Of a stretch of DNA of 64,000 nucleotides, positions 1 to 50,937 are shown in pieces. Below the pieces are notes generated by a model, which saw only the letters and a list, made by a program, of their open reading frames with translations, did no database searches and had not been told where the DNA came from. Made by a program: the position numbers and the translations under genes. The DNA is from an uncultured virus (IMG/VR IMGVR_UViG_3300046836_000576) (taxonomy: Duplodnaviria; Heunggongvirae; Uroviricota; Caudoviricetes), in the IMG/VR virus record IMGVR_UViG_3300046836_000576. One strand, 5' to 3'. Numbering within the stretch: the first letter of the stretch is position 1; each line of letters opens with the position of its first letter.

Positions 1-194
1 GCCGACTGTGAGGATGCGGCCATGACCAGCACGGTTGTTCATGCGAACGATTTGGATCGGGCACGCGCCTTGCTCGCCAACGACCCTGATGAAATGGATG
101 AGGAGTGGCTCGCGGAGATTATCGCTGTCGTCCGAGCCGAGGCAGTCGCGGCTGAGCGCGAGCGCATCGCCCGCCGGGTCGTCCTCGTCACTCA

Positions 195-4760: not shown

Positions 4761-4806
4761 CTCCTTACTGACAAGCTATAATAGCGCTTTTGCAGCGATT
4801 TGCAAG
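4761..4806 (-). promoter_or_regulatory. Early promoter + leader, copy 2
   Basis: CTTGCAA...GCAAAAGCGC-TATTAT, then TGTCAGTAAGGAG. Confidence 0.8.
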
Positions 4807-5400: not shown

Positions 5401-5448
5401 CTCCATTTCTGACTCTCTAAATATAAGCGCTTTGCGCTGAATTGCAAT
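5401..5448 (-). promoter_or_regulatory. Early promoter + leader, copy 3
   Basis: TTGCAA...GCAAAGCGCT-TATATT, then GTCAGAAATGGAG. Confidence 0.85.
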
Positions 5449-5822: not shown

Positions 5823-5869
5823 CTCCTGTCTGACCGCTTACATATAAGCATTTTGCGGTGGAATGCAAT
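5823..5869 (-). promoter_or_regulatory. Early promoter + leader, copy 4
   Basis: TTGCAT...GCAAAATGCT-TATATG, then GTCAGACAGGAG. Confidence 0.8.
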
Positions 5870-6707: not shown

Positions 6708-7307
6708 TTAGAAGAATTCCGCCCAATAGGGATTATCACCCTTATTCAGTCTGTATTCGCAACGAATGCCATGAGGCACCCGAAGCGAGCAGTTATTCTT
6801 CACCCAGGAATCACTGGCGTAACTCCACTTTACGGCGATAAACCACATTGCACCGAGAATTTGGTCGGGAGGAACCTTGCATGTTGCAATCGGATCGGGG
6901 TCTGTCAGCCGGCCGTTAGGAAGGATTAATCCCATCAAGCATTGAAAAGGACGCCCTTGAGTTAGTCTATTCATGCTGTCCCGAACGGGATAGGGATCGT
7001 TGCCGGACAATTCGTTGCAGCGCATCTGGATTCGATTAGTTGGGTATAAATAATTTCCCATTTGAATAGCGTTTCCGTCCCCGGCATATTTGTTAGCGAG
7101 ATTACAAACAACCTGGTCGGGGTCTGGCATCGAATACTCGGATTGGGGTACTGGATCCACTTTCTGGACGTTGGGTTGTAGTATTGATCTGCACTTTGCA
7201 ATGAAGTCGGCTGGCCAACCATCACAGCCCCCTTGCTCGGTGGCGTAAGCAGGTAGGGCAAAAGCCGACATAATGGCGATCCCGGCTAATAGTTGTAACT
7301 TTTTCAT
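6708..7307 (-). CDS. Secreted/periplasmic Cys-rich protein
   Basis: Sec signal MKKLQLLAGIAIMSAFALPAYA; AAGGA RBS; 8 Cys. Confidence 0.7.
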   Translation of the reverse strand: MKKLQLLAGIAIMSAFALPAYATEQGGCDGWPADFIAKCRSILQPNVQKVDPVPQSEYSMPDPDQVVCNLANKYAGDGNAIQMGNYLYPTNRIQMRCNELSGNDPYPVRDSMNRLTQGRPFQCLMGLILPNGRLTDPDPIATCKVPPDQILGAMWFIAVKWSYASDSWVKNNCSLRVPHGIRCEYRLNKGDNPYWAEFF

Positions 7308-7330
7308 CGTAGTTTCCTTTCTAACTTTGA

Positions 7331-8077: not shown

Positions 8078-8125
8078 CTCCATTTCTGACTCTGTAAATA
8101 TAAGCATTTTGCGGGGAATTGCAAG
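8078..8125 (-). promoter_or_regulatory. Early promoter + leader, copy 5
   Basis: CTTGCAA...GCAAAATGCT-TATATT, then GTCAGAAATGGAG. Confidence 0.85.
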
Positions 8126-8904: not shown

Positions 8905-8910
8905 TTCGGT

Positions 8911-8957
8911 CTCCATTCTGACTCTATACATATAAGCGCTTTGCAGCTCATTGCAAT
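8911..8957 (-). promoter_or_regulatory. Early promoter + leader, copy 6
   Basis: TTGCAA...GCAAAGCGCT-TATATG, then GTCAGAATGGAG. Confidence 0.85.
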
Positions 8958-10158: not shown

Positions 10159-10207
10159 CTCCGTTCTGACATCCATACATATAAGCGCTTTTGCGGCGAT
10201 TTGCAAG
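10159..10207 (-). promoter_or_regulatory. Early promoter + leader, copy 7
   Basis: CTTGCAA...GCAAAAGCGCT-TATATG, then GTCAGAACGGAG. Confidence 0.85.
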
Positions 10208-10903: not shown

Positions 10904-10950
10904 CTCCGTTCTGACAGCTTATATATAAGCGCTTTGCGCTACAATGCAAG
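10904..10950 (-). promoter_or_regulatory. Early promoter + leader, copy 8
   Basis: CTTGCAT...GCAAAGCGCT-TATATA, then TGTCAGAACGGAG. Confidence 0.85.
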
Positions 10951-13543: not shown

Positions 13544-13573
13544 ATATATAAGCGCTTTGCAACGAATTGCAAG
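13544..13573 (-). promoter_or_regulatory. Early promoter, copy 9 (no GTCAG leader)
   Basis: CTTGCAA...GCAAAGCGCT-TATATA; back-to-back with copy 10. Confidence 0.8.
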
Positions 13574-13605
13574 CACAAAATGATCTAAAAAATCCGACAC
13601 GGGGA

Positions 13606-13652
13606 CTTGCAATGTGCCGCAAAATGCTTATATGTATGGAGTCAGAATGGAG
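13606..13652 (+). promoter_or_regulatory. Early promoter + leader, copy 10
   Basis: CTTGCAA...GCAAAATGCT-TATATG, then GTCAGAATGGAG. Confidence 0.85.
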
Positions 13653-13658
13653 ACCGAT

Positions 13659-13916
13659 ATGACCAAGTTCGTGAGAGATCAATTTAGCTACTGGGGTGGG
13701 TATCTGACCTACGGGCCGGAACGCCTTTTTATCGCCCGCTTCAAGTACGCCTCGACCTCCAGCAAGCCCCGGTGGATCACGTTCATGTGCAAGAATTTCA
13801 CCGTGGAAGAGTGGCAGGCTGCGCGCGCTCAGGACAAGGCGCCGCTCGACATCATGCGCTCGAAGGGTTTCGAGCTCACTCATATCCTCAAGTGGCGTCG
13901 TGAGGGTGTGATCTAG
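13659..13916 (+). CDS. Hypothetical early protein
   Basis: ATG at 13659 after GGAG RBS. Confidence 0.75.
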   Translation: MTKFVRDQFSYWGGYLTYGPERLFIARFKYASTSSKPRWITFMCKNFTVEEWQAARAQDKAPLDIMRSKGFELTHILKWRREGVI

Positions 13917-14511: not shown

Positions 14512-14546
14512 TCTCTGTGCTTGCGGGAGTGGGGAATGGAGAGCAG

Positions 14547-15053
14547 ATGGCATGGGCTTGCTTTCAAACTTATGGTGCTCAGGAACGTAAAGCTGTCGAG
14601 AACCTGACTCGACAGGGTCTAGACGCGTTTTGCCCGTTCTACACCAAACCCGTACTTCCATCTATCCGAGCACGAGGTCCTAAGGACGCTCCGTTATTTC
14701 CCTGTTACGGTTTTGTCTATCTTGAAGATAAGACGCAGTGGGGAATCCCCGGAAATACATACGGGGTCATTCGGCTTTTAACAGGAAACAAGTTAGATCC
14801 AAGACCTTTATGGGTGGCTACCACCTATATCGAGACAATTTATGAGATTCAAGCAAAGTTTGGTGGGAATGTCTTACCGGTTGATACGATAGTCAGAGTA
14901 AAAACTAAAGATAGCCCGTTTTTTGATCAAATAGGTACTGTTATTTCAATGAATTCAAACGATAGAATCCGGTTATTGATGAGTTTGTTCAATCGAGACA
15001 TTATAGTAGAATTCGAAGCAGGTGCGGATTTAGAAATTGTGGAGCTTGAGTAG
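14547..15053 (+). CDS. NusG/RfaH-family transcription antiterminator
   Basis: NGN domain (W.C.QT...ERKA..NL.RQG..AFCP, PLFPCY.FV, TYGV..LL) plus KOW-like C-terminus; start revised to MAWAC. Confidence 0.88.
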   Translation: MAWACFQTYGAQERKAVENLTRQGLDAFCPFYTKPVLPSIRARGPKDAPLFPCYGFVYLEDKTQWGIPGNTYGVIRLLTGNKLDPRPLWVATTYIETIYEIQAKFGGNVLPVDTIVRVKTKDSPFFDQIGTVISMNSNDRIRLLMSLFNRDIIVEFEAGADLEIVELE

Positions 15054-19533: not shown

Positions 19534-22278
19534 TTGGCTGAAGTTACCGATCTCAAGCAAGTATCGGAAACAAAGAACCCGGTAAAGATAATACCGTCTG
19601 AGGTTCTGGCTAAGTCAGCCATGATTAGGCGGCCTTCAGTAGCAACTCGTAGTCCATTTGAAGTACCGAGCTTCCCGCCAGCAGTTGAGAACGCGCTAAA
19701 AGAGCGCGATATTCCAACACTGGCGATGGATGAAACAATATCTGGAACCTTTGGTTGGGCGTCCAGAGATTTTATTGCCACAGCTTATGCTGAAGGCGTT
19801 GTGTTTATGGGCTATGCCTACCTGGCTAGTCTATCACAACGCCCAGAGTACCGGGTGGTTACAGAAGTTATTGCTTCTGAAATGACTCGTGAGTGGATTG
19901 AGTTAAAGGCCGCCAGTGGTGATGAAAGCAAGTCAGACAAGATCAAGAAAATCAATGACAAGATGGACAACCTTAGGATTAGAAAGGCATTTCAAAAAGC
20001 AACAGAGGCTGATGGTTTCTTTGGTCGCGGTCATTTATACCTAGACACCGGCAAAACTCACGATGACGAAGAGTTAAGGCTGGATTTGGGTGATGGTCGC
20101 AATCTGTTGAGTAAACAGAAGGTTGGTTCGTCAAAAAGTGGTAAAGCGCAAAAGCTGATTAGAGTCTTGCCGGTAGAGCCCACTTGGTGTTATCCTACCC
20201 GGTATGACTCGGTTGATCCACTGAGCCCTGATTGGTATAACCCAATCACTTGGTTTGTAATGTCACGCGAGGTACATCGCTCAAGGTTGCTGACATTTGT
20301 TGGTCGAGAAATGCCGGACATCTTGAAACCCGCCTATGCTTTTGGCGGGTTAAGCATGTCTCAAATGCTCAAGCCCTATGTCGACAATTGGTTAAGGACA
20401 AGACAGAGTGTCAGTGATCTGATTCAGAACTTTTCACATAGTGTATTGAAAACCAATATGGACGCCACCACAGCGGTGGGTGGGGATGCACTTTTCGCTC
20501 GGGTTGCGTTGTTTAACAATATCAAGAATAACCAAGGTGCAATGGTTATTGATAAGGATGCTGAAGATTTCAGTAATGTTAGTGCCCCATTGGGTGGACT
20601 GGATTCCTTACAAGCACAATCTCAAGAACATATGGCGGCGATTGCCCGTATTCCACTGGTTAAGTTGTTGGGCATTCAGCCTGCTGGATTGAATGCAAGT
20701 AGCGAGGGTGAACTGGTTTCTTTTGAAGACTGGATTGCGGCATTTCAGGAAGTATTGTACCGGCCCAATCTGACCAAGATTATTGACCTTATTCAGTTAA
20801 GCGAGTTTGATGAAGTGGACGATGATATTACGTTTGACTTTAAGCCACTAAGACAAGAGAAGCCTGAAGAGATTGTTCAGAGAGAGCAAGTAAAGGCGAC
20901 CACTAGAGAAACCTACTATGGAATGGGTGCTGTAGATCCACAAGAGGTGCGAGATTCTCTTGCTCAGGATCCGGATAGTCCATTTGATGGTGTAGATCTA
21001 ACAAAAGAACTTCCAGCACCACCACAGCCTCCTGGTGTACCTGGTGTCCCACAACCACCAGGTGCTGCATCACAACCAGGAGGGCCAGGTGGACCACCGG
21101 GTGGGGGTCCACCATCACCTGCTTCTGGGCCACCTGGTGCAGCGCCTCCGAAACAACCGAGCCGCCCCCCGGCCCCGGGCGGAGGCGCTCCTGGTGACAA
21201 TAGTAATGATAATAATCAGAAATTAGTTGATCTATTGAATGCTAAGGTAGCGGCAGACGCTGGCTTTGATCCTAAAGACCATCCACATGCACCTGAAGGT
21301 ACTAGTGGTGGTAAAGGTGGTCAGTTTGTCAGTAAAGGTTCTGGTGCATCGGCAGCTACAGCTCCCGCCGCACCAGCAAAGCCTGCAGCTAAGGCGCAGA
21401 CTGCAAAGCCTGCTGCAAAGAAAGCAAAAACAACCACTGCCAAACCTAAGAAAGAATCAACCGTTGGGTATTACAGTCTAACTCCTGCCCCGGCCAATAA
21501 AGAAGATTGGCCAGAACATGCCAAAGACTTTAAGATCCCACCAGCCTGGACCGATGTTAGAATCAATATGGATCCTAACGCTAGGGGTCAACTAGCGGGT
21601 GGTAAAGACTCTAAGGGTCGTATTCAACCACTATTCCATCAGGAGTACAGAGATTCTCAGGATGCAAAAAAGTTTGAGCTTGAATTAAAGTTAACCCCAC
21701 ATATGCCGGAGTACAAGGAAGGAAATGATAAGAATTTGACTGCCTGGGATGGTCGAACTCGTGAACATGCTACATGTCTTGGTATAATCATGCAGATGGG
21801 CCTAAGGCCGGGTAGTGAACGAGATACAGGGGCTGAAAAGCAGGCTTATGGTGCGACTACATTACAAGGTAAGTTTGTCAAGACTGAGGGGGATAAGACA
21901 TTTTTGAGATTTACAGGTAAGAAGGGTGTCTCGTTAAACTTACCAGTTGAAGATCCCGAACTTGCCGCCTCTCTGCGCAAGATGGCAGGGGAAAATCAGG
22001 GTAAGTTGTTCACGAAGATCAATGATCAATCCTTGCGGGATTACACAAAACATATTACAAAGGGTTTAGGCAAGCCTAAGGATTTTAGGACGTTGTTTGC
22101 TAACAAGACTGCAAACGAAGTAATATCAAAGATGCGTGCACCCCCACCCGGTGATGATGCAGCTTTTAAGAAGGCCTGCCAACAGGTTGCATTGGCAGTA
22201 TCGAAAAAGCTAGGCAATACACCAGATGTCGCCTTGCGATCGTATATTAATCCGATCGTGTTCTCAGGCTGGAGATAA
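19534..22278 (+). CDS. Portal protein (DUF1073-like) fused to a type IB DNA topoisomerase
   Basis: aa 1-490 portal (GYAYLA.L.QRPEYR, IPLVKLLGI.P.GLNASSEGE); Pro/Ala linker; C-terminal IPPAWTDV, LRPG, F.GKKG, KDFRT, LGNTP, RSYINP. Confidence 0.9.
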   Translation: MAEVTDLKQVSETKNPVKIIPSEVLAKSAMIRRPSVATRSPFEVPSFPPAVENALKERDIPTLAMDETISGTFGWASRDFIATAYAEGVVFMGYAYLASLSQRPEYRVVTEVIASEMTREWIELKAASGDESKSDKIKKINDKMDNLRIRKAFQKATEADGFFGRGHLYLDTGKTHDDEELRLDLGDGRNLLSKQKVGSSKSGKAQKLIRVLPVEPTWCYPTRYDSVDPLSPDWYNPITWFVMSREVHRSRLLTFVGREMPDILKPAYAFGGLSMSQMLKPYVDNWLRTRQSVSDLIQNFSHSVLKTNMDATTAVGGDALFARVALFNNIKNNQGAMVIDKDAEDFSNVSAPLGGLDSLQAQSQEHMAAIARIPLVKLLGIQPAGLNASSEGELVSFEDWIAAFQEVLYRPNLTKIIDLIQLSEFDEVDDDITFDFKPLRQEKPEEIVQREQVKATTRETYYGMGAVDPQEVRDSLAQDPDSPFDGVDLTKELPAPPQPPGVPGVPQPPGAASQPGGPGGPPGGGPPSPASGPPGAAPPKQPSRPPAPGGGAPGDNSNDNNQKLVDLLNAKVAADAGFDPKDHPHAPEGTSGGKGGQFVSKGSGASAATAPAAPAKPAAKAQTAKPAAKKAKTTTAKPKKESTVGYYSLTPAPANKEDWPEHAKDFKIPPAWTDVRINMDPNARGQLAGGKDSKGRIQPLFHQEYRDSQDAKKFELELKLTPHMPEYKEGNDKNLTAWDGRTREHATCLGIIMQMGLRPGSERDTGAEKQAYGATTLQGKFVKTEGDKTFLRFTGKKGVSLNLPVEDPELAASLRKMAGENQGKLFTKINDQSLRDYTKHITKGLGKPKDFRTLFANKTANEVISKMRAPPPGDDAAFKKACQQVALAVSKKLGNTPDVALRSYINPIVFSGWR

Positions 22279-22475
22279 TGGCACCACTTCCTCAACCTTC
22301 CTATGGTGAATATGGCAATCATGCTGATTTGCCAACTGACGAGGAGCGGGAGGAAGAGGTTGATGAGGATGCTCCAGTTAGTCAAGACTGGATAGACATC
22401 ATGGGTTTTGACCCTGATGAGCTAGATTGGGATGACGTGGAAGAACCCGAAACCACAGAGGAAGAAGATGCATAA
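22278..22475 (+). CDS. Small highly acidic protein
   Basis: TAATG-coupled to the portal-Topo gene; D/E rich; IMGFDP motif. Confidence 0.75.
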   Translation: MAPLPQPSYGEYGNHADLPTDEEREEEVDEDAPVSQDWIDIMGFDPDELDWDDVEEPETTEEEDA

Positions 22476-22815
22476 GGGGATTCAATCGATTTGGACAGCA
22501 GAACAAGACGAAATTCTAATCAAGGCGATAAATGATGGGATGGAACAAGGGTTGACACAAAAGAAAGTCATTATTGCATTGATGAAAGCATTTGATCGAG
22601 AGTATGGGAGTATACGAACTCGAATTACCAGGCTGCGTGAGGAAAAGACGTTAGTTAACTATGTCCGCCGAAAAAGTAGAAAATCGGGCAGCGTACCTGG
22701 TGCTTATCAAAATTGGGTGGATACACGTAAGAAACCCTTCGTTAAGCCAAGTCTAAATCGACCGGATTGGTTTGACAAAGAGAATCTTCAGGAGCGAATA
22801 CTTGCCGGAAGATAA
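22468..22815 (+). CDS. HTH (GcrA/Myb-like N-terminus) DNA-binding protein
   Basis: WTAEQDEIL...R.YGSIRTRI.RL; start revised to MHKGI. Confidence 0.55.
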   Translation: MHKGIQSIWTAEQDEILIKAINDGMEQGLTQKKVIIALMKAFDREYGSIRTRITRLREEKTLVNYVRRKSRKSGSVPGAYQNWVDTRKKPFVKPSLNRPDWFDKENLQERILAGR

Positions 22816-23077
22816 TCCACCTATTGGTACTTTGGTGACCTGCGAAAACGGGCATCGAATTTGTGAGATAGTGGGACCAATTGCGGATTGGCGAGAAAAG
22901 ACTGCACTGTCCGCTGGATTTGGTAACTATACACCCGGTGAGAAACTTGTTGGACCTGGTGACATTGCAGCGTACTGCAGATGCCAACAATGTGGTGCCC
23001 CTTGGGTGGATGTACGGCCAAATGTCAGGGGTACGTTGAGTGCAAAAGTTCATCTCGAAACTGGTTGGTGGCCGTAG
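22772..23077 (+). CDS. Hypothetical Zn-ribbon protein
   Basis: TCENGH.IC and CQQCGAPW. Confidence 0.55.
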   Translation: MTKRIFRSEYLPEDNPPIGTLVTCENGHRICEIVGPIADWREKTALSAGFGNYTPGEKLVGPGDIAAYCRCQQCGAPWVDVRPNVRGTLSAKVHLETGWWP

Positions 23078-23104
23078 CTCTAACACCTTGCAAGGAGTAC
23101 AAAA

Positions 23105-23593
23105 ATGGACATAGACATTATGTGGTCGATGTTTAACAAGTATCGTCCGATGCTTGACGAGATGCATACGGCATGGTTGGTCATGCCTCCGTACAACAAA
23201 GATGTTCCCTTTGTTGAGGGAGCACCTATGGTTGGTCAGAGTCTGACCTGCACCATGGGTAACTGGAACCACATGGATGCAGAGCCTCATAGCTATGTAT
23301 TCCAGTGGAAGCGTGATGGTGCAGACGTAGATGGTGGTATTGAGCCCAACACCTATGCGGTTGCCGATTCCGATGCCGGTCATGTTATTACTTGTGTAGT
23401 GACGGCGACCAACGAATATGGGACGACCGAAGCTCCGCCGAGTAATGAAATCGAAATTCCGGCGGCGGATGGTTCAACTCGTTCCTCACGAGGCGCAGAA
23501 AAAGAAGAAAAAGAGGAAGATGATGACCACCGTTCGGGTCCACCGTCTCCAAGACGGGACAATAATCAACCCCAGCACCATCGCCGCACGTAA
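23105..23593 (+). CDS. Ig-like domain virion protein
   Basis: VGQSLTC..G.W...Y.FQW.RDG...TY.V...D.G..ITC.VTATN. Confidence 0.8.
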   Translation: MDIDIMWSMFNKYRPMLDEMHTAWLVMPPYNKDVPFVEGAPMVGQSLTCTMGNWNHMDAEPHSYVFQWKRDGADVDGGIEPNTYAVADSDAGHVITCVVTATNEYGTTEAPPSNEIEIPAADGSTRSSRGAEKEEKEEDDDHRSGPPSPRRDNNQPQHHRRT

Positions 23594-23615
23594 TTGTTGA
23601 ACAGGAGGAAGTCAA

Positions 23616-23735
23616 GTGTCGGATCCTCACCCACAAGAAGCACCACCACCTCCTCCACCTCCTGGTACCGCACCTATCGTCCCTAATCCTCATCCACCGG
23701 AGCCCGATAGGGAAGAGGAAAAGGAGCTCGTCTAG
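23616..23735 (+). CDS. Small Pro-rich protein
   Basis: AGGAGG RBS, GTG start, 39 aa read manually. Confidence 0.5.
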   Translation: MSDPHPQEAPPPPPPPGTAPIVPNPHPPEPDREEEKELV

Positions 23736-23840
23736 TAGACGGCTTTTAGGCGGTACACATGCGGTAAAGGGTCCTACGCATACCAAGCTGCTTAGGACCC
23801 GTTCATCCCACTAGAAACCGAGCTCTATGGGACTCTTGCT

Positions 23841-25352
23841 ATGGCGTTCGATCAGACCAGCCCCGAGTTCTTAAGCCAAATGAGAAACTTTGCTCGAGGA
23901 CTGTTGTCCTGGATCAATGAAGAGGGTGAGGAAGAGGAGCACGATGAAGTGGGTGATCAAGCTAATGATGAGCAACCGCCACTGTTGAAAGTAAAGACGG
24001 TAACAGAGCATCATTACGCTGATCCGAATGGTATGGCAACGGATCCTCCTGTCAGTGAAGCGCAACGTGGTGCAATGGGTGCTGCGGCTGGTGGTAATTC
24101 TACACTTGGCATTCCCCAATCGGTTGGTAAAGAGTTTATGAATGCCGACCCCGGTGGGAAATTGCAACAAAAGGCAAAGGATGGTGCGTATTATACTCGT
24201 ACAGCAATAGGGGAAAGACAAGAAAAGCCTGCTATAGATGATCAAAATGGTCGGTTTTCATTGTCACCCGACGGTCAATATGTTATTGATAATCAGACTG
24301 GTAACCAGCATAGCATTGATGACGTTATGCGGATTTTGTTTTCTGATGGGCAAAATGATTCTGCTGCAAGCTTGAAACCAGAAGTTACCGTAGCTAAGGA
24401 TCCTGTTTCCAAGCCCATGACACCCACAGGTATGTGGAAGAGCCCAAAGATTGATCCAAGTACTCGTAGTGGCAATCCTGGTGATAACGGGAAACCTCCT
24501 CTTGGTAATGGTGAGGGTGGAACAGCACTTGGGAACTTGCTCAAGTACACTGCTGGTGAAACCAGTCGTGATGATACCATGAAAGGTGGATCGATGGGCT
24601 ATCAAGGTAATGGTTGGTCATCTCCTACAATTCCACCTCAAAAGGCAAAGGATGGTGGTCCCGGTAGTGGACCACAAAAGGGTAGGCAGCGTTCACTGCC
24701 GAAGGAACTACCGTCAGGTGAACTAAATACAAGTCCTTATAAAGGTTTGCCTGATCCTAAGTCTTCAAATGAAGCTGCTAAGGCGGCCATGAAGGCAAAC
24801 ATGCAGAAATATCAGTCTAGTGTTACGAATAGAAAACCCACAAGGGATGGTATTGGTGCCAGTATTGTAAAGGGTGCAACTACCGCAGTCAATAAAGCCA
24901 ATACTGTATCCCAAGGTGGTCCAGTATTTGGTGACGGTGGCCCTGGCAGTGGACCGCATCCGGGTGGCGGGTCTGAAGGAGGAGAGACAGTGAAGAGTAC
25001 CTCTGGTAAATCAACAGTGACTAAAGTTGAGCCCACTGCTAAAGGGGCTGTCTATCATGTTGACAGCTCTGAGCATGGTGGGTTAATGAAGAATCAGCTT
25101 CATTATACTAGTGGTGGTAATTTATATCAACACGTATCTAATGGTTCCCCTATTGCTAATAAGATCTCGTTAAAGTTTAATCCTGATATACACGATGCTG
25201 TGAAGAATCATATTAAACAACATGGATTACCCAAGTCCGTAAAGGGTGGGACTGGTTCTATTGTTCAGGCACAGCCCGGTTCGTCCTCTGTTGGGGCAAA
25301 TATTAAAAGAAATATGGCAGCTCAGGCTGGTAAACGTAGGGCTGGATTTTGA
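23841..25352 (+). CDS. Low-complexity putative internal head protein
   Basis: Repeated A-x-D motifs, two DGGPGSGP motifs, SEAQRGAM...GIPQSVGKEF segment. Confidence 0.75.
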   Translation: MAFDQTSPEFLSQMRNFARGLLSWINEEGEEEEHDEVGDQANDEQPPLLKVKTVTEHHYADPNGMATDPPVSEAQRGAMGAAAGGNSTLGIPQSVGKEFMNADPGGKLQQKAKDGAYYTRTAIGERQEKPAIDDQNGRFSLSPDGQYVIDNQTGNQHSIDDVMRILFSDGQNDSAASLKPEVTVAKDPVSKPMTPTGMWKSPKIDPSTRSGNPGDNGKPPLGNGEGGTALGNLLKYTAGETSRDDTMKGGSMGYQGNGWSSPTIPPQKAKDGGPGSGPQKGRQRSLPKELPSGELNTSPYKGLPDPKSSNEAAKAAMKANMQKYQSSVTNRKPTRDGIGASIVKGATTAVNKANTVSQGGPVFGDGGPGSGPHPGGGSEGGETVKSTSGKSTVTKVEPTAKGAVYHVDSSEHGGLMKNQLHYTSGGNLYQHVSNGSPIANKISLKFNPDIHDAVKNHIKQHGLPKSVKGGTGSIVQAQPGSSSVGANIKRNMAAQAGKRRAGF

Positions 25353-25392
25353 GGTGCACTCATGAATTTAGCGTATACAGGGTCTCAGAGAC

Positions 25393-25602
25393 ATGATTGA
25401 TCTATCACAACCAATTTTAACCAATGGAACATTCACATTACGGACCATGATAATGATTGTTGACGAAGGGAAAGAAGCCTTTCGTGCTGGCCTAAAATTG
25501 CGCCAATGTCCACGTTTCAAATCCCCGGACATGGTACGCGCGTGGCGTGACGGTTGGCGAGAGGCAAAGCACTCCACCAGCCGAGCGCGGATATCGCAAT
25601 AA
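25393..25602 (+). CDS. Rmf-like small protein
   Basis: EGKEAF.AG.....CP.......AWRDGW resembles ribosome modulation factor. Confidence 0.5.
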   Translation: MIDLSQPILTNGTFTLRTMIMIVDEGKEAFRAGLKLRQCPRFKSPDMVRAWRDGWREAKHSTSRARISQ

Positions 25603-25633
25603 AACCGCAATGATAATTCTTTAATATGTAGAA

Positions 25634-25720
25634 CTTCGGCTTCCCCCTGAGGCCGAGGGCGAGGATCGGGGCGGTCTCCTTTCTGACAAAGAGTAACTTG
25701 CCCCGGTCCTCTTGCCTTTC
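25634..25720 (+). ncRNA. Candidate two-hairpin sRNA antisense to early leaders
   Basis: Two stems with G-U pairs; 25672-25688 is the reverse complement of TGTCAGAAAGGAGACCG. Confidence 0.5.
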
Positions 25721-25743
25721 CTAATCACAGTGGAGTAAAGCTA

Positions 25744-26151
25744 ATGCCTGCCATTAAACTGAGGCCTGGCGAAACCGTTGTCGTCGCGGCAATCGATCCG
25801 TCACTGGAAATCGGTGGCGGTCCAATGCCTGGTGGAGATCCGCCGGTTGATCCAGGTTACGGTATCGATCTTGGACTGGGCTATCTGCGCCCGACCCATC
25901 CGATCGTTCTCCCACCGCCCACCGTTCCCATTGAACCGCCGCCAGAGGGTCCGGTTGATCCGGGTTGGGGCATTGATGTAGACATCGGCTATGTCCGCCC
26001 AGAGCATCCGATTGTGCTGCCCCCGGTGCCGACACCCACACCTCCAACGCCCACGCTTCAGTGGGAAGTTAAAACGGCGTGGACACCTGTGACGGGGTGG
26101 GTTGTTGTTGCCGTTCCGACGGGTCCGACTCCAACGCCGGCCAAAACCTAA
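25744..26151 (+). CDS. Pro-rich protein with internal duplication
   Basis: PVDPG(Y/W)GID...GY.RP.HPIVLPP twice; GGAG RBS. Confidence 0.75.
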   Translation: MPAIKLRPGETVVVAAIDPSLEIGGGPMPGGDPPVDPGYGIDLGLGYLRPTHPIVLPPPTVPIEPPPEGPVDPGWGIDVDIGYVRPEHPIVLPPVPTPTPPTPTLQWEVKTAWTPVTGWVVVAVPTGPTPTPAKT

Positions 26152-26172
26152 TCATGATGTCGGCGGTGCAGC

Positions 26173-26811
26173 ATGACACAACCACCGCCGACGCCTCCTT
26201 CTTCAAGCAAGGGTTGGCTTGTTGATACAATAACGTCAATCCTTGCCTTTATAGATAAGCCTTGGAAAGCTGTAGTTATAGTTGTACTATTGATACTTGG
26301 TGGTATTGGGTTCTTTGTTTATGACAAACGTAATGAACTCTTTGAGGCTTGGCTGACTCCCGATGCACCAGAACTCAAGACAAGCGAAATTCCAGCCTCG
26401 CTCGATTTACTTGCGCAAGAGACAGATGCAGATCTCGTCCAAGTCTGGGCCGTCGATATTTCTTCCAATTCTCAGTGGTTTATTGCTGCTAGGCGGCATG
26501 ATGGGGAACGCCCTGTAATTCCATCACCAAGACGCTTGCCGATTATGGACCATGCGTCAGATATACGAAAACTAGTTGATATTTTAGAAGGACACCCTGT
26601 TTGTGTTGATTTGAATATAAATGGTACACCTGTTGCTAGGCGTTTAGCCGAGCGTGGTATGAAAAGGGGATGTGCAATTCCTATACCACCAAATCCTGAA
26701 TCATTTGTTGGTGTGATTTATCTATCCTGGTCTACTCCAGTTGATTCAAGTACTGAGAGTGTGGCGGTAGGCTCCGCTCGTGAGATAGCAAAGAAACTAT
26801 CTACACACTGA
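26173..26811 (+). CDS. Single-TM protein with GAF-like C-terminal domain (possible T-type holin)
   Basis: One TM helix, then a globular domain ending CAIPIPP...FVGVIYLSW. Confidence 0.5.
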   Translation: MTQPPPTPPSSSKGWLVDTITSILAFIDKPWKAVVIVVLLILGGIGFFVYDKRNELFEAWLTPDAPELKTSEIPASLDLLAQETDADLVQVWAVDISSNSQWFIAARRHDGERPVIPSPRRLPIMDHASDIRKLVDILEGHPVCVDLNINGTPVARRLAERGMKRGCAIPIPPNPESFVGVIYLSWSTPVDSSTESVAVGSAREIAKKLSTH

Positions 26812-26821
26812 GGAGGTTCCA

Positions 26822-27001
26822 ATGCCTGAAGATGATACTCGAGTGCTTGACTCTATTGGTCATTTTCCAATGGCTGGTAAAGTAAAGAGTGAAAAAGAAG
26901 CCGCTATTGAGCGGAAGCGTCGTGAAGTGCGTGATATAATGCTTAAAAAGTCGCTCTGCTTCCATCCTCTTGATTGGAAAGCTGGACTCTCCATCTGGTA
27001 A
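26822..27001 (+). CDS. Hypothetical protein (59 aa)
   Basis: Read manually; AGGAGG RBS. Confidence 0.55.
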   Translation: MPEDDTRVLDSIGHFPMAGKVKSEKEAAIERKRREVRDIMLKKSLCFHPLDWKAGLSIW

Positions 27002-27066
27002 CCTCTCTGCGGACCATGGCCTAGTTCGTGGGCGTGTAGCCCCGAGCGACGGAGGGTCGGGGCCCT

Positions 27067-27177
27067 ATGACATGGTTGTATTTTATACTGGTTGGGGTCG
27101 TTGTTTTAGCTTTAATCAGTTGGGCGCTAGATAAACCACCACCACCTGATAGTGAGTTTGATGACGACTGGCCTTAG
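27067..27177 (+). CDS. Small membrane peptide (36 aa)
   Basis: Read manually: MTWLYFILVGVVVLALISWALDKPPP... Confidence 0.45.
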   Translation: MTWLYFILVGVVVLALISWALDKPPPPDSEFDDDWP

Positions 27178-29161
27178 GGAATACCTGATTGGAAGGCTGC
27201 CGCTCCTGTCATTAGCGTTTGATGAGAGCGCTAAACAGAGAAAAGATAAGTATGATTTAGATGTTTGCTGTAATTATGGGGATGAAGCCCCGGCCAAAGG
27301 TAAGGCGGCAAGTGTAGCATTCTTTACCCCACAAAATAAGGTCCTATTTGTAAAACGATCAGCATCAGAAGAAAATTGGGCTGATACTTGGTCCTGGCCC
27401 GGTGGTAAGGTAGATGATGGCGAGGGCGAGTATGATGCGGTTCGTCGTGAATGTGAAGAAGAACTTGGTCATTGTCCAGAAGATGATGGTCAGTGGATTA
27501 AAGTAGAGACTAAACGAACACCATTTGGTTGGGATCATACTACTTTTGCTTGTCCGGTAGAGGATGAATTTGAACCTACATTAAACAGTGAACATTCAGC
27601 TTATCTTTGGCGTGGATTGAATGAATTACCTGAACCACTTCATCCAGGAGTAAAGGCATCATTAGAGAAGTTGAAAGATATTGCAGAGGACGAAGAGCCC
27701 GTCCCACTAGATCCTGATATCTTAGAACTTGCTCGAAACATGCCTTCAAATATCATTCAACAATTGTATCAACTACAGGCCGAGCGTGATAGGTATCGGG
27801 AGCCTGGTGAAGACGCTGAATTCAAGAATCCCGCACAGGATGCAGCACTTAGGCAATTTCTATTTTGTCGTTTACCGAACCTTCTTGCCTATGATGCACC
27901 AGAAGGTACCTGGTCAGAAGAAGTGCATCCTAGAGACAAGACTGGTAAATTTGCCAAGAAAGGTAGTGCTTCACCTAAATTGATAAAGCAGTTGAAGGAT
28001 GCAGGGTATATAGAGCATCCTGATTTCTCTAAAACAGAAATATACCACCATCCGGAAACAGGGCATCATGTCGGTTTTATCGGAATGAGTGGGAATAGCA
28101 ATGCAATCAAACATCTGCCACCCACAGGTAAACCTTCAAAGCTGATTATTGGCCAGAAGGGTATTGCGGAATTCTTACAAAGGGTGCATGGTCATGGTGG
28201 TGGTCCAGTAGATACTGGTACGGAATCAAAGCAAACAGAAAAGGCAATCAAGAAGAAGACTCTAACTCCAAGGGAAAGGATTAAGCAGATCATTGATCCA
28301 ATGGGTTATTATCATACCGTTGAAGCGCAAACAATAGAAGCATTTAAGAATGCCAATATAGCGATAGATATAAGTGGCGGTTCGTGGGGGCGCCCATCAG
28401 AGTTTAGATTAAGGGAATGGAAGGGTACGAAGGTTATTCAACCGGAGGAACTTGATCCTGAACTTCAGCATACGTTTGATCACTTAAAAGAATCTAGTGA
28501 GATGGCAACTAAGGCTTCCATTAGTCTCAGTCATCGTTTAACTGATGAGGAAGCGAAGGAAGTAAAGAGCTTGGTCGCTGAGGAATTAGATTATCCTGAT
28601 AAGAAGATCAAGATAAGCAAGGCAACGCCAACCGATAGATTGAATGGTCGTAGGTTTAGGGTTGCTGGTCATGCTTTCCTGAATACAGGGATTATTAAGA
28701 TTTATCAAAAGAACGTTAGTAGTCGCTCTATTTGCGCAGTTACAGCTCATGAAGTAATGCATCAAAAGTGGGAAGCGGTTAAGCGACAATATGAGAAGGA
28801 ACAAGCTGAATTTCATAAGAAAAGGGCTGAGATCTATCCTAATGATCTCTCAATTGAAGAGGTCAACAGGGATTATCCCACTTATGCTGCAATTGGACTT
28901 ATGCCTGCTTCTGCATTACAGAAGCATGATGGATTGACTGACTATAGTCGGGATTGGTGGAAGTCATACGAAGATGGGCATACTTCCAGTACTAGATTGC
29001 CAATTCATGAGACTTTAGCTGAAATGGCTGCATTAGATTGGGAAGGTATGTTGAACGAAAAAGATTTATCAATATGGTACAGGGATCCTAACCCTTGGAA
29101 GAAGATTTATAAGGCGATTTTAGAGAGATTCCCGCATGTACCAAAGATACAGAGATATTAA
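27152..29161 (+). CDS. Multidomain head-associated protein: NUDIX hydrolase + zincin metallopeptidase
   Basis: Nudix box GGKVDDGEGEYDAVRRECEEELG; HPRDKTGKF motif; HEVMH and downstream ETLAE. Confidence 0.85.
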   Translation: MSLMTTGLREYLIGRLPLLSLAFDESAKQRKDKYDLDVCCNYGDEAPAKGKAASVAFFTPQNKVLFVKRSASEENWADTWSWPGGKVDDGEGEYDAVRRECEEELGHCPEDDGQWIKVETKRTPFGWDHTTFACPVEDEFEPTLNSEHSAYLWRGLNELPEPLHPGVKASLEKLKDIAEDEEPVPLDPDILELARNMPSNIIQQLYQLQAERDRYREPGEDAEFKNPAQDAALRQFLFCRLPNLLAYDAPEGTWSEEVHPRDKTGKFAKKGSASPKLIKQLKDAGYIEHPDFSKTEIYHHPETGHHVGFIGMSGNSNAIKHLPPTGKPSKLIIGQKGIAEFLQRVHGHGGGPVDTGTESKQTEKAIKKKTLTPRERIKQIIDPMGYYHTVEAQTIEAFKNANIAIDISGGSWGRPSEFRLREWKGTKVIQPEELDPELQHTFDHLKESSEMATKASISLSHRLTDEEAKEVKSLVAEELDYPDKKIKISKATPTDRLNGRRFRVAGHAFLNTGIIKIYQKNVSSRSICAVTAHEVMHQKWEAVKRQYEKEQAEFHKKRAEIYPNDLSIEEVNRDYPTYAAIGLMPASALQKHDGLTDYSRDWWKSYEDGHTSSTRLPIHETLAEMAALDWEGMLNEKDLSIWYRDPNPWKKIYKAILERFPHVPKIQRY

Positions 29162-31206: not shown

Positions 31207-31555
31207 CCAGATTGGCCAAATCCAAACGTCTATCGGCACAGCTGGTTTATTGAAAATATTTACGGGTGCCGAGCCAGCGAGCTGTACTGCGGCTGATCCT
31301 GCTGGACCTGTGGCAACGATTGCACTTCCAGCGACCTTTCTAACCTCTGTTGCTGGTGTGACAACTATTGCTGGTGCTTGGACTGCTAGTGCCGCTGCAA
31401 CTGGTACTGCTTCAAGCTTTCGAATGTATGACGCTGCCGGTACCTGCCATGTTCAGGGGAATGTCGCCACCGATCTTGTACTTAACAATACCTCGATTAC
31501 GTCTGGTCAGACGGTGACCGTTACCAGTTTTAGTGTTACCGCTGGGAACGCATAA
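31172..31555 (+). CDS. Small T/A-rich virion protein
   Basis: LKIFTG..P, GTA..FR, DLVLNNTSI.SGQ.V.V.SF pattern. Confidence 0.75.
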   Translation: MTFQYGTALRNNQIGQIQTSIGTAGLLKIFTGAEPASCTAADPAGPVATIALPATFLTSVAGVTTIAGAWTASAAATGTASSFRMYDAAGTCHVQGNVATDLVLNNTSITSGQTVTVTSFSVTAGNA

Positions 31556-31568
31556 AGGGAGTACCGCG

Positions 31569-31901
31569 ATGGCCGTAGCGACCGCGACCCCGGAGCAACT
31601 GGCGCAACTGCATAATTTCGTGCAGATGCAGCGAGCGACGACTATCGAGTGGTTCAGGATTATGAACCAGATCGAGGCGTTGATCCTTGGCTGGAATAGT
31701 ACCATCTTGGGCATTATCGGCCCGCCACAGAACACCGTCATTCACGATGCGAGCAGCCTCGCTGGTTGCTCAGAGTTGACCGACACACAAGTTACCAATC
31801 TGTTTGGTACACTTCAGCAGATGCACACGGATTACTTCACGGCGAACAATCAAGCCGCTGCCGTGCTGGCGACTGGACCGGGCAACTCAAGTGTTAGCTG
31901 A
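31569..31901 (+). CDS. Hypothetical virion protein
   Basis: GGGAG RBS before MAVAT; TGATG coupling to next gene. Confidence 0.7.
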   Translation: MAVATATPEQLAQLHNFVQMQRATTIEWFRIMNQIEALILGWNSTILGIIGPPQNTVIHDASSLAGCSELTDTQVTNLFGTLQQMHTDYFTANNQAAAVLATGPGNSSVS

Positions 31902-50289: not shown

Positions 50290-50937
50290 ATGGATTACTA
50301 CGTCTATGTACTGATTCGATCTGACAATGGAAAGCCTTTCTACGTTGGATGTGCCATACAACTAGGTCGGATCAGTACACATCTTTCAGGTAGGGATACA
50401 GCAACAGGTACGATTGTTCGGTCTCTTCGTGATCTAGGATATGAAACCATTCCAATAATAGTGAGGGATGATATAGAATATAAAGAAGCTCGTTTGATTG
50501 AGACTTGTTTAATAGATGCGCTTAATGGGTTGATTGTAAACAAACGTAGATATGTTGGTGGGTTTTGTGAAGAAACTAGACGTCGAATGTCCCTTGCCAA
50601 ACTCGGGAAGCCTAGTGCAAGAAAAGGTAAAAGATATGGACCTACTGAGCGAGGTAAGATTGCTCAAGGACAATTAGGTTGGATAACAAATGGTGTTGAA
50701 GATAAAAGAGTCAATAAGAACAACCCTATTCCTGATGGTTGGTATCGAGGCCGAAGTTTAATAGTTACTCAACAAGAATTAGATAAACGAATTGAACAGA
50801 AACAAGAGAATCGAAAGATTTGGCTTTATCGAAATCGAAATCGATCTTGGATCACGAACGGTTTAAAGAGTAAAAGGCTTCTTGATACTGACCCTATTCC
50901 TGATGGTTGGTATCTTGGACGAAAAGTCAACCGGTAA
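50290..50937 (+). mobile_element. Free-standing GIY-YIG homing endonuclease
   Basis: YYVY...PFYVG...R...H, E..LI, ETRRRMS.AK (NUMOD3-like), WITNG...IPDGWY.GR twice; AT-rich. Confidence 0.82.

Follow-up and report, generated by a model that had tools for sequence, protein, structure and literature searches.

A double hairpin in the late gene block of an uncultured phage whose predicted loop is complementary to the early-gene leaders

In the late (structural) gene block of an uncultured phage, on a stretch of 64,000 nucleotides (nt) from IMG/VR record IMGVR_UViG_3300046836_000576 (the window hereafter), the gap between the stop codon of a gene for a 69-amino-acid protein (25602) and the start codon of a gene for a 135-amino-acid protein (25744) holds a double hairpin on the + strand, the second half of which carries a sequence complementary to the leaders of the early genes. 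We analyzed its fold, its match to the leaders, the predicted energetics of pairing, and its occurrence in strain variants and relatives. The observation, which came from a reading made without database searches (the sequence-only reading), was confirmed, and its interpretation is plausible and specific, if unproven. Our leading reading, drawn from the sequence, is that the hairpins may serve within late mRNA as an antisense module covering the ribosome-binding sites of early genes; we hold this to be a real possibility while stopping short of calling it probable.

Results

The double hairpin and its fold

From about 0.5 to 13.5 kilobases (kb) of the window, open reading frames (ORFs) on the − strand encode a helicase and many small proteins without assigned function (as judged by phage-family matches), and from 13.6 kb on the + strand encodes the small and large terminase, portal, head protease, major head protein, sheath, tape measure, baseplate and fibres. 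Among these + strand genes, the hairpin element and its surroundings comprise the following features.

25590–25633, + strand: conserved block of ~44 nt 5′ of hairpin 1, overlapping the stop codon of the upstream gene
25634–25658, + strand: hairpin 1, 10 base pairs (bp) with a 5-nt loop, CCCCC
25657–25717, + strand: hairpin 2, 24 pairs, −34.0 kcal/mol
25672–25688, + strand: anti-leader CGGTCTCCTTTCTGACA, the complement of the early leader, Shine-Dalgarno sequence included, starting at about +1
25683–25687, + strand: apical loop of hairpin 2, CUGAC (5 nt), in the minimum-free-energy and centroid folds

Folding 25634–25717 as + strand RNA gave the two hairpins at −46.2 kcal/mol (z −3.86, with 0 of 200 shuffles as good), compared with −41.2 kcal/mol for the − strand of the same stretch (z −2.25, with 5 of 200 shuffles as good). 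The strand difference was greatest for hairpin 1, which alone reached −16.0 kcal/mol on the + strand versus −8.9 kcal/mol on the − strand; in hairpin 2, three of the 24 pairs are G-U pairs on the + strand. In hairpin 2, an outer stem of 17 bp, interrupted by one 2-nt bulge, is followed by an internal loop and then by a bulged 5-bp mini-helix; its distal part is GGUCUCCUUUCUGACAAAGAG, its tail is UUUCCU, and its apical CUGAC is the complement of GUCAG, the invariant 5′ end of the leaders. The sequence-only reading had claimed just such an intergenic double hairpin, with G-U pairs that favour the + strand and with CUGAC able to lie in the apical loop, and the folds agreed with it on all three counts. 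The YUNR U-turn motif has been described for antisense recognition loops, and we take the apical CUGA of hairpin 2 to fit it. In Rfam searches, no family, C4 included, reached its gathering score anywhere in the window, and a search of 25400–25900 with E values up to 10 returned a sole match, to mir-207, which was spurious (16.7 bits versus 88, E 2.5).

The loop complements the leaders of the early promoter cassettes

A virus record, G001, matches the window from 31905 onward with 1 mismatch in 32,096 bases, and its last 61 bases (92906–92966) are those of window positions 1–61, so that the circle closes at ~124.8 kb (the 93-kb G001 record had itself been rated 98% complete by CheckV). This closed genome contains 14 copies of a promoter unit, cTTGCAAt-N5-GCAAA-N2-4-GCTTATAT. 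In 12 of these 14 cassettes, GTCAG-N3(4)-GGAGA lies 5–9 nt after the −10 hexamer and a start codon follows 5–9 nt later; the cassettes at 13572 (−) and genome position 97463 (−) have other leaders. Nine of the 12 GTCAG leaders are in the window, as the sequence-only reading had counted, eight of them on the − strand and one on the + strand at 13641, and three are elsewhere in the genome. By the usual spacing rule, transcription would start at or adjoining the G of GUCAG, in which case the conserved 13 nt would be the extreme mRNA 5′ end plus the Shine-Dalgarno sequence. The nine leaders in the window are listed here with their net pairing energies, which are defined in the next section.

13641–13656, + strand: early-type leader GTCAGAATGGAGACCG, −15.5 kcal/mol; first leader of the operon leading into the structural genes
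10904–10915, − strand: early leader GTCAGAACGGAG, −12.9 kcal/mol
10159–10170, − strand: early leader GTCAGAACGGAG, −11.3 kcal/mol
8907–8922, − strand: early leader GTCAGAATGGAGACCG, −16.9 kcal/mol
8078–8090, − strand: early leader GTCAGAAATGGAG (one extra A), −12.9 kcal/mol
5823–5834, − strand: early leader GTCAGACAGGAG, −6.7 kcal/mol
5401–5413, − strand: early leader GTCAGAAATGGAG (one extra A), −14.1 kcal/mol
4761–4772, − strand: early leader GTCAGTAAGGAG, −7.1 kcal/mol
2232–2243, − strand: early leader GTCAGAACGGAG, −10.0 kcal/mol

With at most one mismatch allowed, GTCAGAANGGAG matched the window eight times versus 0.95 times expected; seven matches follow a promoter and one is the hairpin, and the two cassettes with GTCAGAAATGGAG come in addition. 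Across the whole 124.8-kb genome, the hairpin is the only non-cassette copy of GTCAGAANGGAGA at 0 mismatches, and about 0.015 exact copies would be expected by chance (an arithmetic estimate for 12 specified bases on both strands). The reverse complement of 25672–25688 is, with 0 mismatches, the 17-mer that the sequence-only reading had presented as essentially the consensus of the nine early leaders, and its count of 15 matches in 16 nt at 8907 and 13641 held: the anti-leader aligns over 16 nt with 1 mismatch to 8907–8922 and to 13641–13656, and over 18 nt with 1 mismatch to the leader at genome position 81753–81770. Similarity ends at the edges of the transcribed leader, with none to the −10 region upstream and none to the coding sequence downstream. 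On the − strand of the hairpin, the stretch upstream of the motif bears no relation to the cassette and contains no TTGCAA/TTATAT promoter, and the 25 nt after GGAG hold no ATG, GTG or TTG, in keeping with the earlier claim that the element is not an eleventh early cassette.

All 14 cassettes also carry an inverted repeat, TTGC-N8-GCAA, across the −35 element and spacer (e.g., 13607–13633 on the + strand and 2253–2279 on the − strand), as do the fragments G035 and G036 of a related phage described below; this repeat may be an operator for a dimeric regulator. At 13545–13660, two cassettes diverge from a spacer of ~35 bp, the − strand one with a long, different leader; in strain G003, the partner in this divergent pair has a GTCAGTAAGGAG leader instead.

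Predicted pairing energies single out early 5′ ends

We calculated raw duplex energies between the distal 29 nt of hairpin 2 and each transcript, and obtained −20.5 to −34.1 kcal/mol for the 12 GTCAG leaders, −12.8 and −14.5 kcal/mol for the two cassettes with other leaders, and a median of −13.0 kcal/mol for 177 predicted start regions. When the cost of opening both RNAs was charged and the paired interval was optimised, the net energies were −6.7 to −16.9 kcal/mol for the 12 leaders, −1.4 and −3.0 kcal/mol for the two other cassettes, and a median of −2.4 kcal/mol (5th percentile −8.0 kcal/mol) for the 177 start regions. Within hairpin 2, opening the 12-nt core costs 4.35 kcal/mol and opening a 17-nt stretch 9.9 kcal/mol. 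The top eight of the 177 start regions are all on the early strand; seven are cassette leaders, and the eighth is an internal site at 7325 (net −11.8 kcal/mol). The complement to leader and ribosome-binding site that the sequence-only reading had thought exposed is thus, by predicted net energies, specific to early 5′ ends and their Shine-Dalgarno sequences. The internal site (7313–7325, − strand) is the ribosome-binding site GTTAGAAAGGAAA of an early-operon gene at 6708–7307, leader-like and without a promoter.

Strain variants retain hairpin 2 and its loop

A 503-amino-acid protein encoded upstream of the element is found at seven IMG/VR loci, of which five reach the hairpin element, and all five carry it. 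In L003 all 240 nt compared are identical to the window, in L002 the 157 nt reached are identical, and L007 is 91% identical upstream and identical across the covered part of the hairpins (L007 also has a 12-nt in-frame insertion near the end of the 69-amino-acid gene, an Rmf-like, that is, ribosome-modulation-factor-like, gene described below). The remaining two, L005 and L006, are 84% identical over 210 nt; in them, the Rmf-like gene is missing and the 503-amino-acid gene has another C-terminus. The ~44-nt block 5′ of hairpin 1 is kept in L005/L006 although these upstream genes differ, and an unrelated 7-bp hairpin stands at the place of hairpin 1. In both strain contexts the element lies ~30–45 nt past a stop codon.

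Hairpin 2 keeps its architecture in L005/L006, with G-U pairs that again favour the + strand. In a pair-by-pair comparison of the window with L005, based on a hand-written structure and two distinct sequences, 20 of the 24 pairs are invariant, two are changed on one side and still paired (U-G to C-G and C-G to U-G), one is changed on both sides (G-C to A-U), and one pair of the mini-helix is lost. The 18 nt at 25673–25690 are unchanged, with a substitution directly 5′ and two substitutions plus an insertion directly 3′ of them. Loop and early leaders are both unchanged in the strain variant.

The wider distribution of element, leaders and promoters

A covariance model of hairpin 2 was searched against 90 sources (1,043,260 bases) and recovered only the element, its reverse strand and one match at 15.5 bits (E 0.49). 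One related phage, represented by the fragments G035 and G036, is 65–72% identical to the genome and syntenic with it at 0.6–8.8, 65–83 and 108–121 kb; the fragments do not span the region equivalent to 22–27 kb. They keep the promoter type, and their six leaders are heterogeneous, with two of the six sharing GGGTAGCAA(T/G)GGA. A search of the fragments for an anti-leader to their own GGGTAGCAA-type leaders returned nothing beyond the leaders themselves.

A 212-amino-acid protein encoded nearby has 233 homologues. Among 42 homologue loci from metagenomes (8 of them without upstream sequence), an anti-leader lay within 1.5 kb upstream in 0 of 34, and the 503-amino-acid, Rmf-like or 135-amino-acid neighbours were encoded in 0 of 42. 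Phages sharing the 212-amino-acid gene were considered as relatives and set aside as a different, smaller kind, lacking the neighbour genes, the anti-leader and the leaders; in one of them, L073, the portal C-terminus lies only ~300 nt 5′ of that gene, and the ~3.9-kb hairpin-bearing block at 22278–26173 therefore looks like a lineage-specific insertion zone separating the portal from the 212-amino-acid gene. Of 27 long IMG/VR records searched, eight had a single GTCAGNNNGGAG, which is the level of the reversed control pattern, and none had several. G006/G007, the nearest other lineage by portal (67% identity, 62% GC), had one motif match, also at control level, and were set aside as too distant; in G006 (L045–L050), another short repeat, (A)TGGCTCGCTC, is clustered on either strand (e.g., 81157–81690, 31425–31625 and 24386–24583). 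In that distant relative, the portal homologue forms the N-terminal third of a 1631-amino-acid ORF (L043, 9965–14860).

Scanning IMG/VR with the promoter pattern gave 67 stretches, mostly from this species, together with G035/G036 and a few chance matches. Matches in the genome collection (80 of 102 stretches listed) were single in each record, came from many phyla and were taken as chance; eight such loci that we inspected (seven bacterial and one from IMG/VR, L203) resemble ordinary promoters. An alternative promoter pattern gave two matches, which fell by chance inside a sheath-like gene. Six single matches in Hyphomicrobiales and other alphaproteobacterial genomes (L326, L321, L342, L344, L299 and L317) look like real promoters of the same build, as exemplified by TTGCAATTGCACGCAAAAGCGCTTATAT in a Rhizobiaceae record, and these matches may give a weak hint at the host group, which, to go by the promoter type, could be alphaproteobacterial.

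Genomic setting

The phage collection contained no nucleotide match to the window in near or distant mode, and the best capsid protein identity in it was 48.6%, from which we conclude that the source is an uncultured myovirus-like phage known from metagenomes alone; the 212-amino-acid neighbour protein, too, had matches in that collection only at 22–23%. The genes flanking the hairpins are these.

25393–25602, + strand: upstream gene, 69-amino-acid Rmf/CrpP-family protein (NCBIfam NF041886, 30 bits versus a cut-off of 28)
25744–26151, + strand: downstream gene, 135-amino-acid proline-rich protein with an internal repeat, no family match

Against Pfam RMF, the 69-amino-acid protein scored 23.3 bits, below the cut-off of 27.9. 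The occurrence of an Rmf-like gene beside an RNA that resembles an anti-Shine-Dalgarno sequence is suggestive, yet the two are separable, the gene being missing in L005/L006. The downstream gene has a GGAG Shine-Dalgarno sequence 15 nt past hairpin 2, and its product contains an internal duplication (DPGYGIDLGLGYLRPTHPIVLPPP and DPGWGIDVDIGYVRPEHPIVLPPV). Further upstream, just 5′ of the terminase genes and 3′ of the sole + strand early-type cassette, 14517–15053 (+) encodes a NusG/RfaH/UpxY-like protein (Pfam NusG, 37.3 bits; the RfaH and UpxY matches are weak), a setting that suggests that the structural operon is transcribed with processive antitermination. Between the sheath gene and the tail genes that follow it, an ORF at 50290–50937 (+) resembles an HNH or homing endonuclease, with weak PHROG matches.

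Discussion

A possible antisense module in the late transcript

We propose a sequence of events in which the double hairpin would be a structured RNA module on the + strand late transcript. Once late transcription passed 25.6 kb, hairpin 2 would present CUGAC in its apical loop, and the free 5′ end of an early mRNA could nucleate on it. Pairing would then spread via the mini-helix across the Shine-Dalgarno sequence, over 14–18 bp, and occlude the ribosome-binding site; the duplex might also be cleaved by a double-strand RNase. Early protein synthesis would drop as late transcripts built up, and among the targets would be the leader at 13641, the first of the + strand operon itself. In this scheme we infer that the RNA accumulates, that it acts either as an excised small RNA or within the long mRNA, that it pairs in vivo and that it affects translation. 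The most far-reaching version, which we advance tentatively, would be that one late-mRNA module without promoter or terminator times the early-to-late switch of a lytic phage, its CUGAC loop capturing every early 5′ end and silencing a dozen dispersed operons, with the homogeneity of the leaders kept for addressability.

Several results weigh against an antisense role. The element is confined to one species, with no copy in 1.04 Mb of other relatives' DNA, and the heterogeneous leaders of G035/G036 indicate that the proposed control would not be general to the lineage. The covariation in the stem is without statistical weight, since it comes from two distinct sequences and is equalled by 233 of 500 shuffles, and an 18-nt core left unchanged has, given the rate at which the element itself diverges, a post hoc probability of ~0.07 (an arithmetic estimate). 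A nested two-strand fold in which the hairpin is opened nets only −0.5 to −10.0 kcal/mol for the 12 leaders, a gain no better than that of 47 late start regions (mean −3.7, best −15.0 kcal/mol); pairing would therefore need a loop-to-5′-end geometry that a nested model cannot represent, and winding into the loop is conceivable because the target would be at a free 5′ end. A search for RNA runs covering 23800–27800 returned none. A scan for sigma-70-type promoter-like sites gave none at the element, a test of 59 upstream regions for enriched 7-mers yielded only the early cassette and no late-promoter motif, and hairpin 2 has no terminator tail (UUUCCU in the window, UUAUCC in the variant).

The last of these points bear mainly on the form that the RNA would take. 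With neither a promoter-like site nor a terminator tail, an independent small RNA is not indicated. Within the conserved upstream block, TAATATG (25622–25628) resembles the early −10 sequence TTATATG; it has neither a −35 element nor a TG extension and so was not callable as a promoter, and its distance to hairpin 1 is 7 nt in the window, and to the corresponding hairpin in L005/L006 only 4 nt. CTTTAAT occurs 15 times on the + strand and 9 times on the − strand, without a convincing common context. Canonical terminators elsewhere in the phage have long U-runs, and a terminator scan did not list hairpin 2; we rejected it as an intrinsic (Rho-independent) terminator because the stem is present and the run of U absent, which makes plain termination a poor explanation. 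The + strand operon begins at the early-type cassette at 13607, and this cassette together with the NusG/RfaH/UpxY-like protein fits a long antiterminated late transcript. Thus, of the "one late sRNA" of the sequence-only reading, the structured + strand RNA element in the late gene block stood and the separate small RNA found no support, and it is more likely that the module is part of, or processed from, late polycistronic RNA than that it is an independently transcribed small RNA.

Alternative explanations

The main rival is that the double hairpin could be an ordinary intercistronic pair in the late operon that stops 3′ exonucleases, undergoes RNase III-type processing or weakly attenuates transcription, whose loop holds a ~20-nt relic of an early leader left by old recombination and which plays no role in trans; we consider this explanation possible, if somewhat doubtful. 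Other late intergenic gaps do hold GC-rich hairpins without U-runs, for instance after 40492 and 41745 beside the major head gene, and the element has no promoter or terminator that would define a small RNA and lies shortly past a stop codon in both strain contexts. The outer stem of hairpin 2 (17 bp with its 2-nt bulge) would also be compatible, as modelled, with the largely uninterrupted duplex of ~20 bp in an RNase III-type processing hairpin between cistrons, the conservation statistics are weak, and the NusG/RfaH-like factor encoded at the operon head suggests read-through of internal hairpins. Those other hairpins, however, are simple stems with 4–6-nt loops, whereas hairpin 2 has a 25-nt distal region. 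A relic should moreover decay evenly, but here the leader-like core is perfect and its edges are those of the transcribed leader, with unrelated or variable sequence on both sides; nor is a relic expected to stay intact while the flanks on either side vary, or to lie in the tip of a hairpin in which the stem changes preserve pairing, and to place a 20-nt inverted leader fragment exactly at that apex needs an unusual event.

An explanation at the level of DNA would be that a phage or host protein reads the GTCAGAANGGAGA duplex in the stretch of early promoters that is transcribed first, for example to shut off transcription as a repressor or to load an elongation factor, and also binds the inverted copy, or that this copy is a recombination substrate between cassettes. 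Double-stranded DNA can be read in either orientation, the leader is conserved beyond Shine-Dalgarno needs at about +1 to +13 of 12 promoters, and these promoters carry the operator-like palindrome TTGC-N8-GCAA. The motif itself, however, is neither palindromic nor repeated within a site, the contigs examined showed no cassette-hairpin rearrangement, and the copy occupies the tip of a hairpin with stem changes that preserve pairing and are + strand-specific, which points to RNA; we judge a DNA-level role improbable and leave it a small share of the weight, with a slightly smaller share going to explanations that we have not thought of. Chance, in the form of an anti-Shine-Dalgarno-like pyrimidine run plus CUGAC in a structured spacer, is unlikely as the origin and receives very little weight. 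In its favour, several unrelated families of AT-rich phages have GTCAGAAAGGAGAC as a normal ribosome-binding context, the sequence-only reading was free to pick any oddity, and the exact loop 16-mer occurs at 43 IMG/VR loci, of which five are this species and 38 are other, unrelated ribosome-binding sites, the 16-mer being in most of these the complement of a site beside a start codon. Set against this are the ~0.015 exact copies expected in the genome, matches that reach 16–18 nt, and a location that is at once intergenic, apical and antisense to the leaders.

Significance and comparison with known systems

Early-gene shut-off in virulent phages is understood mainly via proteins (promoter shut-off factors, T4 RegB and T4 RegA), and most of the phage antisense RNAs known so far act on a single gene of a temperate phage. 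If the antisense reading is true, one late RNA for a whole set of early leaders would make a switch that is compact, programmable and global, the RNA counterpart of T4 RegB, and would explain the near-identical early leaders found in some phages; if the element is instead a stabiliser hairpin with a relic, it amounts to a minor annotation. The same search, for late-strand hairpin loops complementary to repeated early leaders, is applicable to other phage genomes. No multi-leader case appeared among the matches listed, as excerpted there, by a literature search on phage small RNAs acting on early genes, and one may still be in print.

In architecture, the element is close to the T7-type intercistronic RNase III or stabiliser hairpins, which are long and imperfect, lie between late cistrons just past stop codons and have no U-run. 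Hairpin 2 is like them in length, imperfection, lack of a U-run and place, but it bears the anti-leader, whereas T7-type hairpins are not known to hold a complement to a family of other phage mRNAs. The T4 PeSL elements, many near-identical early promoter-plus-leader units spread across the early region, offer a likeness that concerns the targets and not the hairpin, the copy at 25.6 kb being without promoter and start codon.

Among phage antisense RNAs, P22 sar lowers the expression of a phage regulator by base pairing. Lambda OOP and aQ are described as phage RNAs that do the same (PMC12197685). OOP, aQ and sar are each transcribed opposite a single, fully complementary target, whereas the hairpin lies 12–56 kb from its putative targets and matches each over 14–18 nt. 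The closest mechanism is that of the c4 RNA of P1/P7, a phage-encoded, structured, trans-acting RNA whose complementary sequences, presumed to be in loops, pair around a ribosome-binding site and shut off translation (PMC12197685). By covariance-model search the hairpin element is not a member of the Rfam C4 family, and c4 serves immunity by acting on one antirepressor operon with its targets in the same transcript, whereas here there would be 12 dispersed early leaders, an apparently lytic phage and a temporal switch. The closest biological role to the proposed early-gene silencing is that of T4 RegB, which inactivates many early mRNAs at their GGAG Shine-Dalgarno sequences (PMC3014915). RegB is a protein nuclease that needs ribosomal protein S1 and recognizes GGAG with an A-rich tail, whereas the agent proposed here would be an RNA, with a specificity for GUCAG plus GGAGA.

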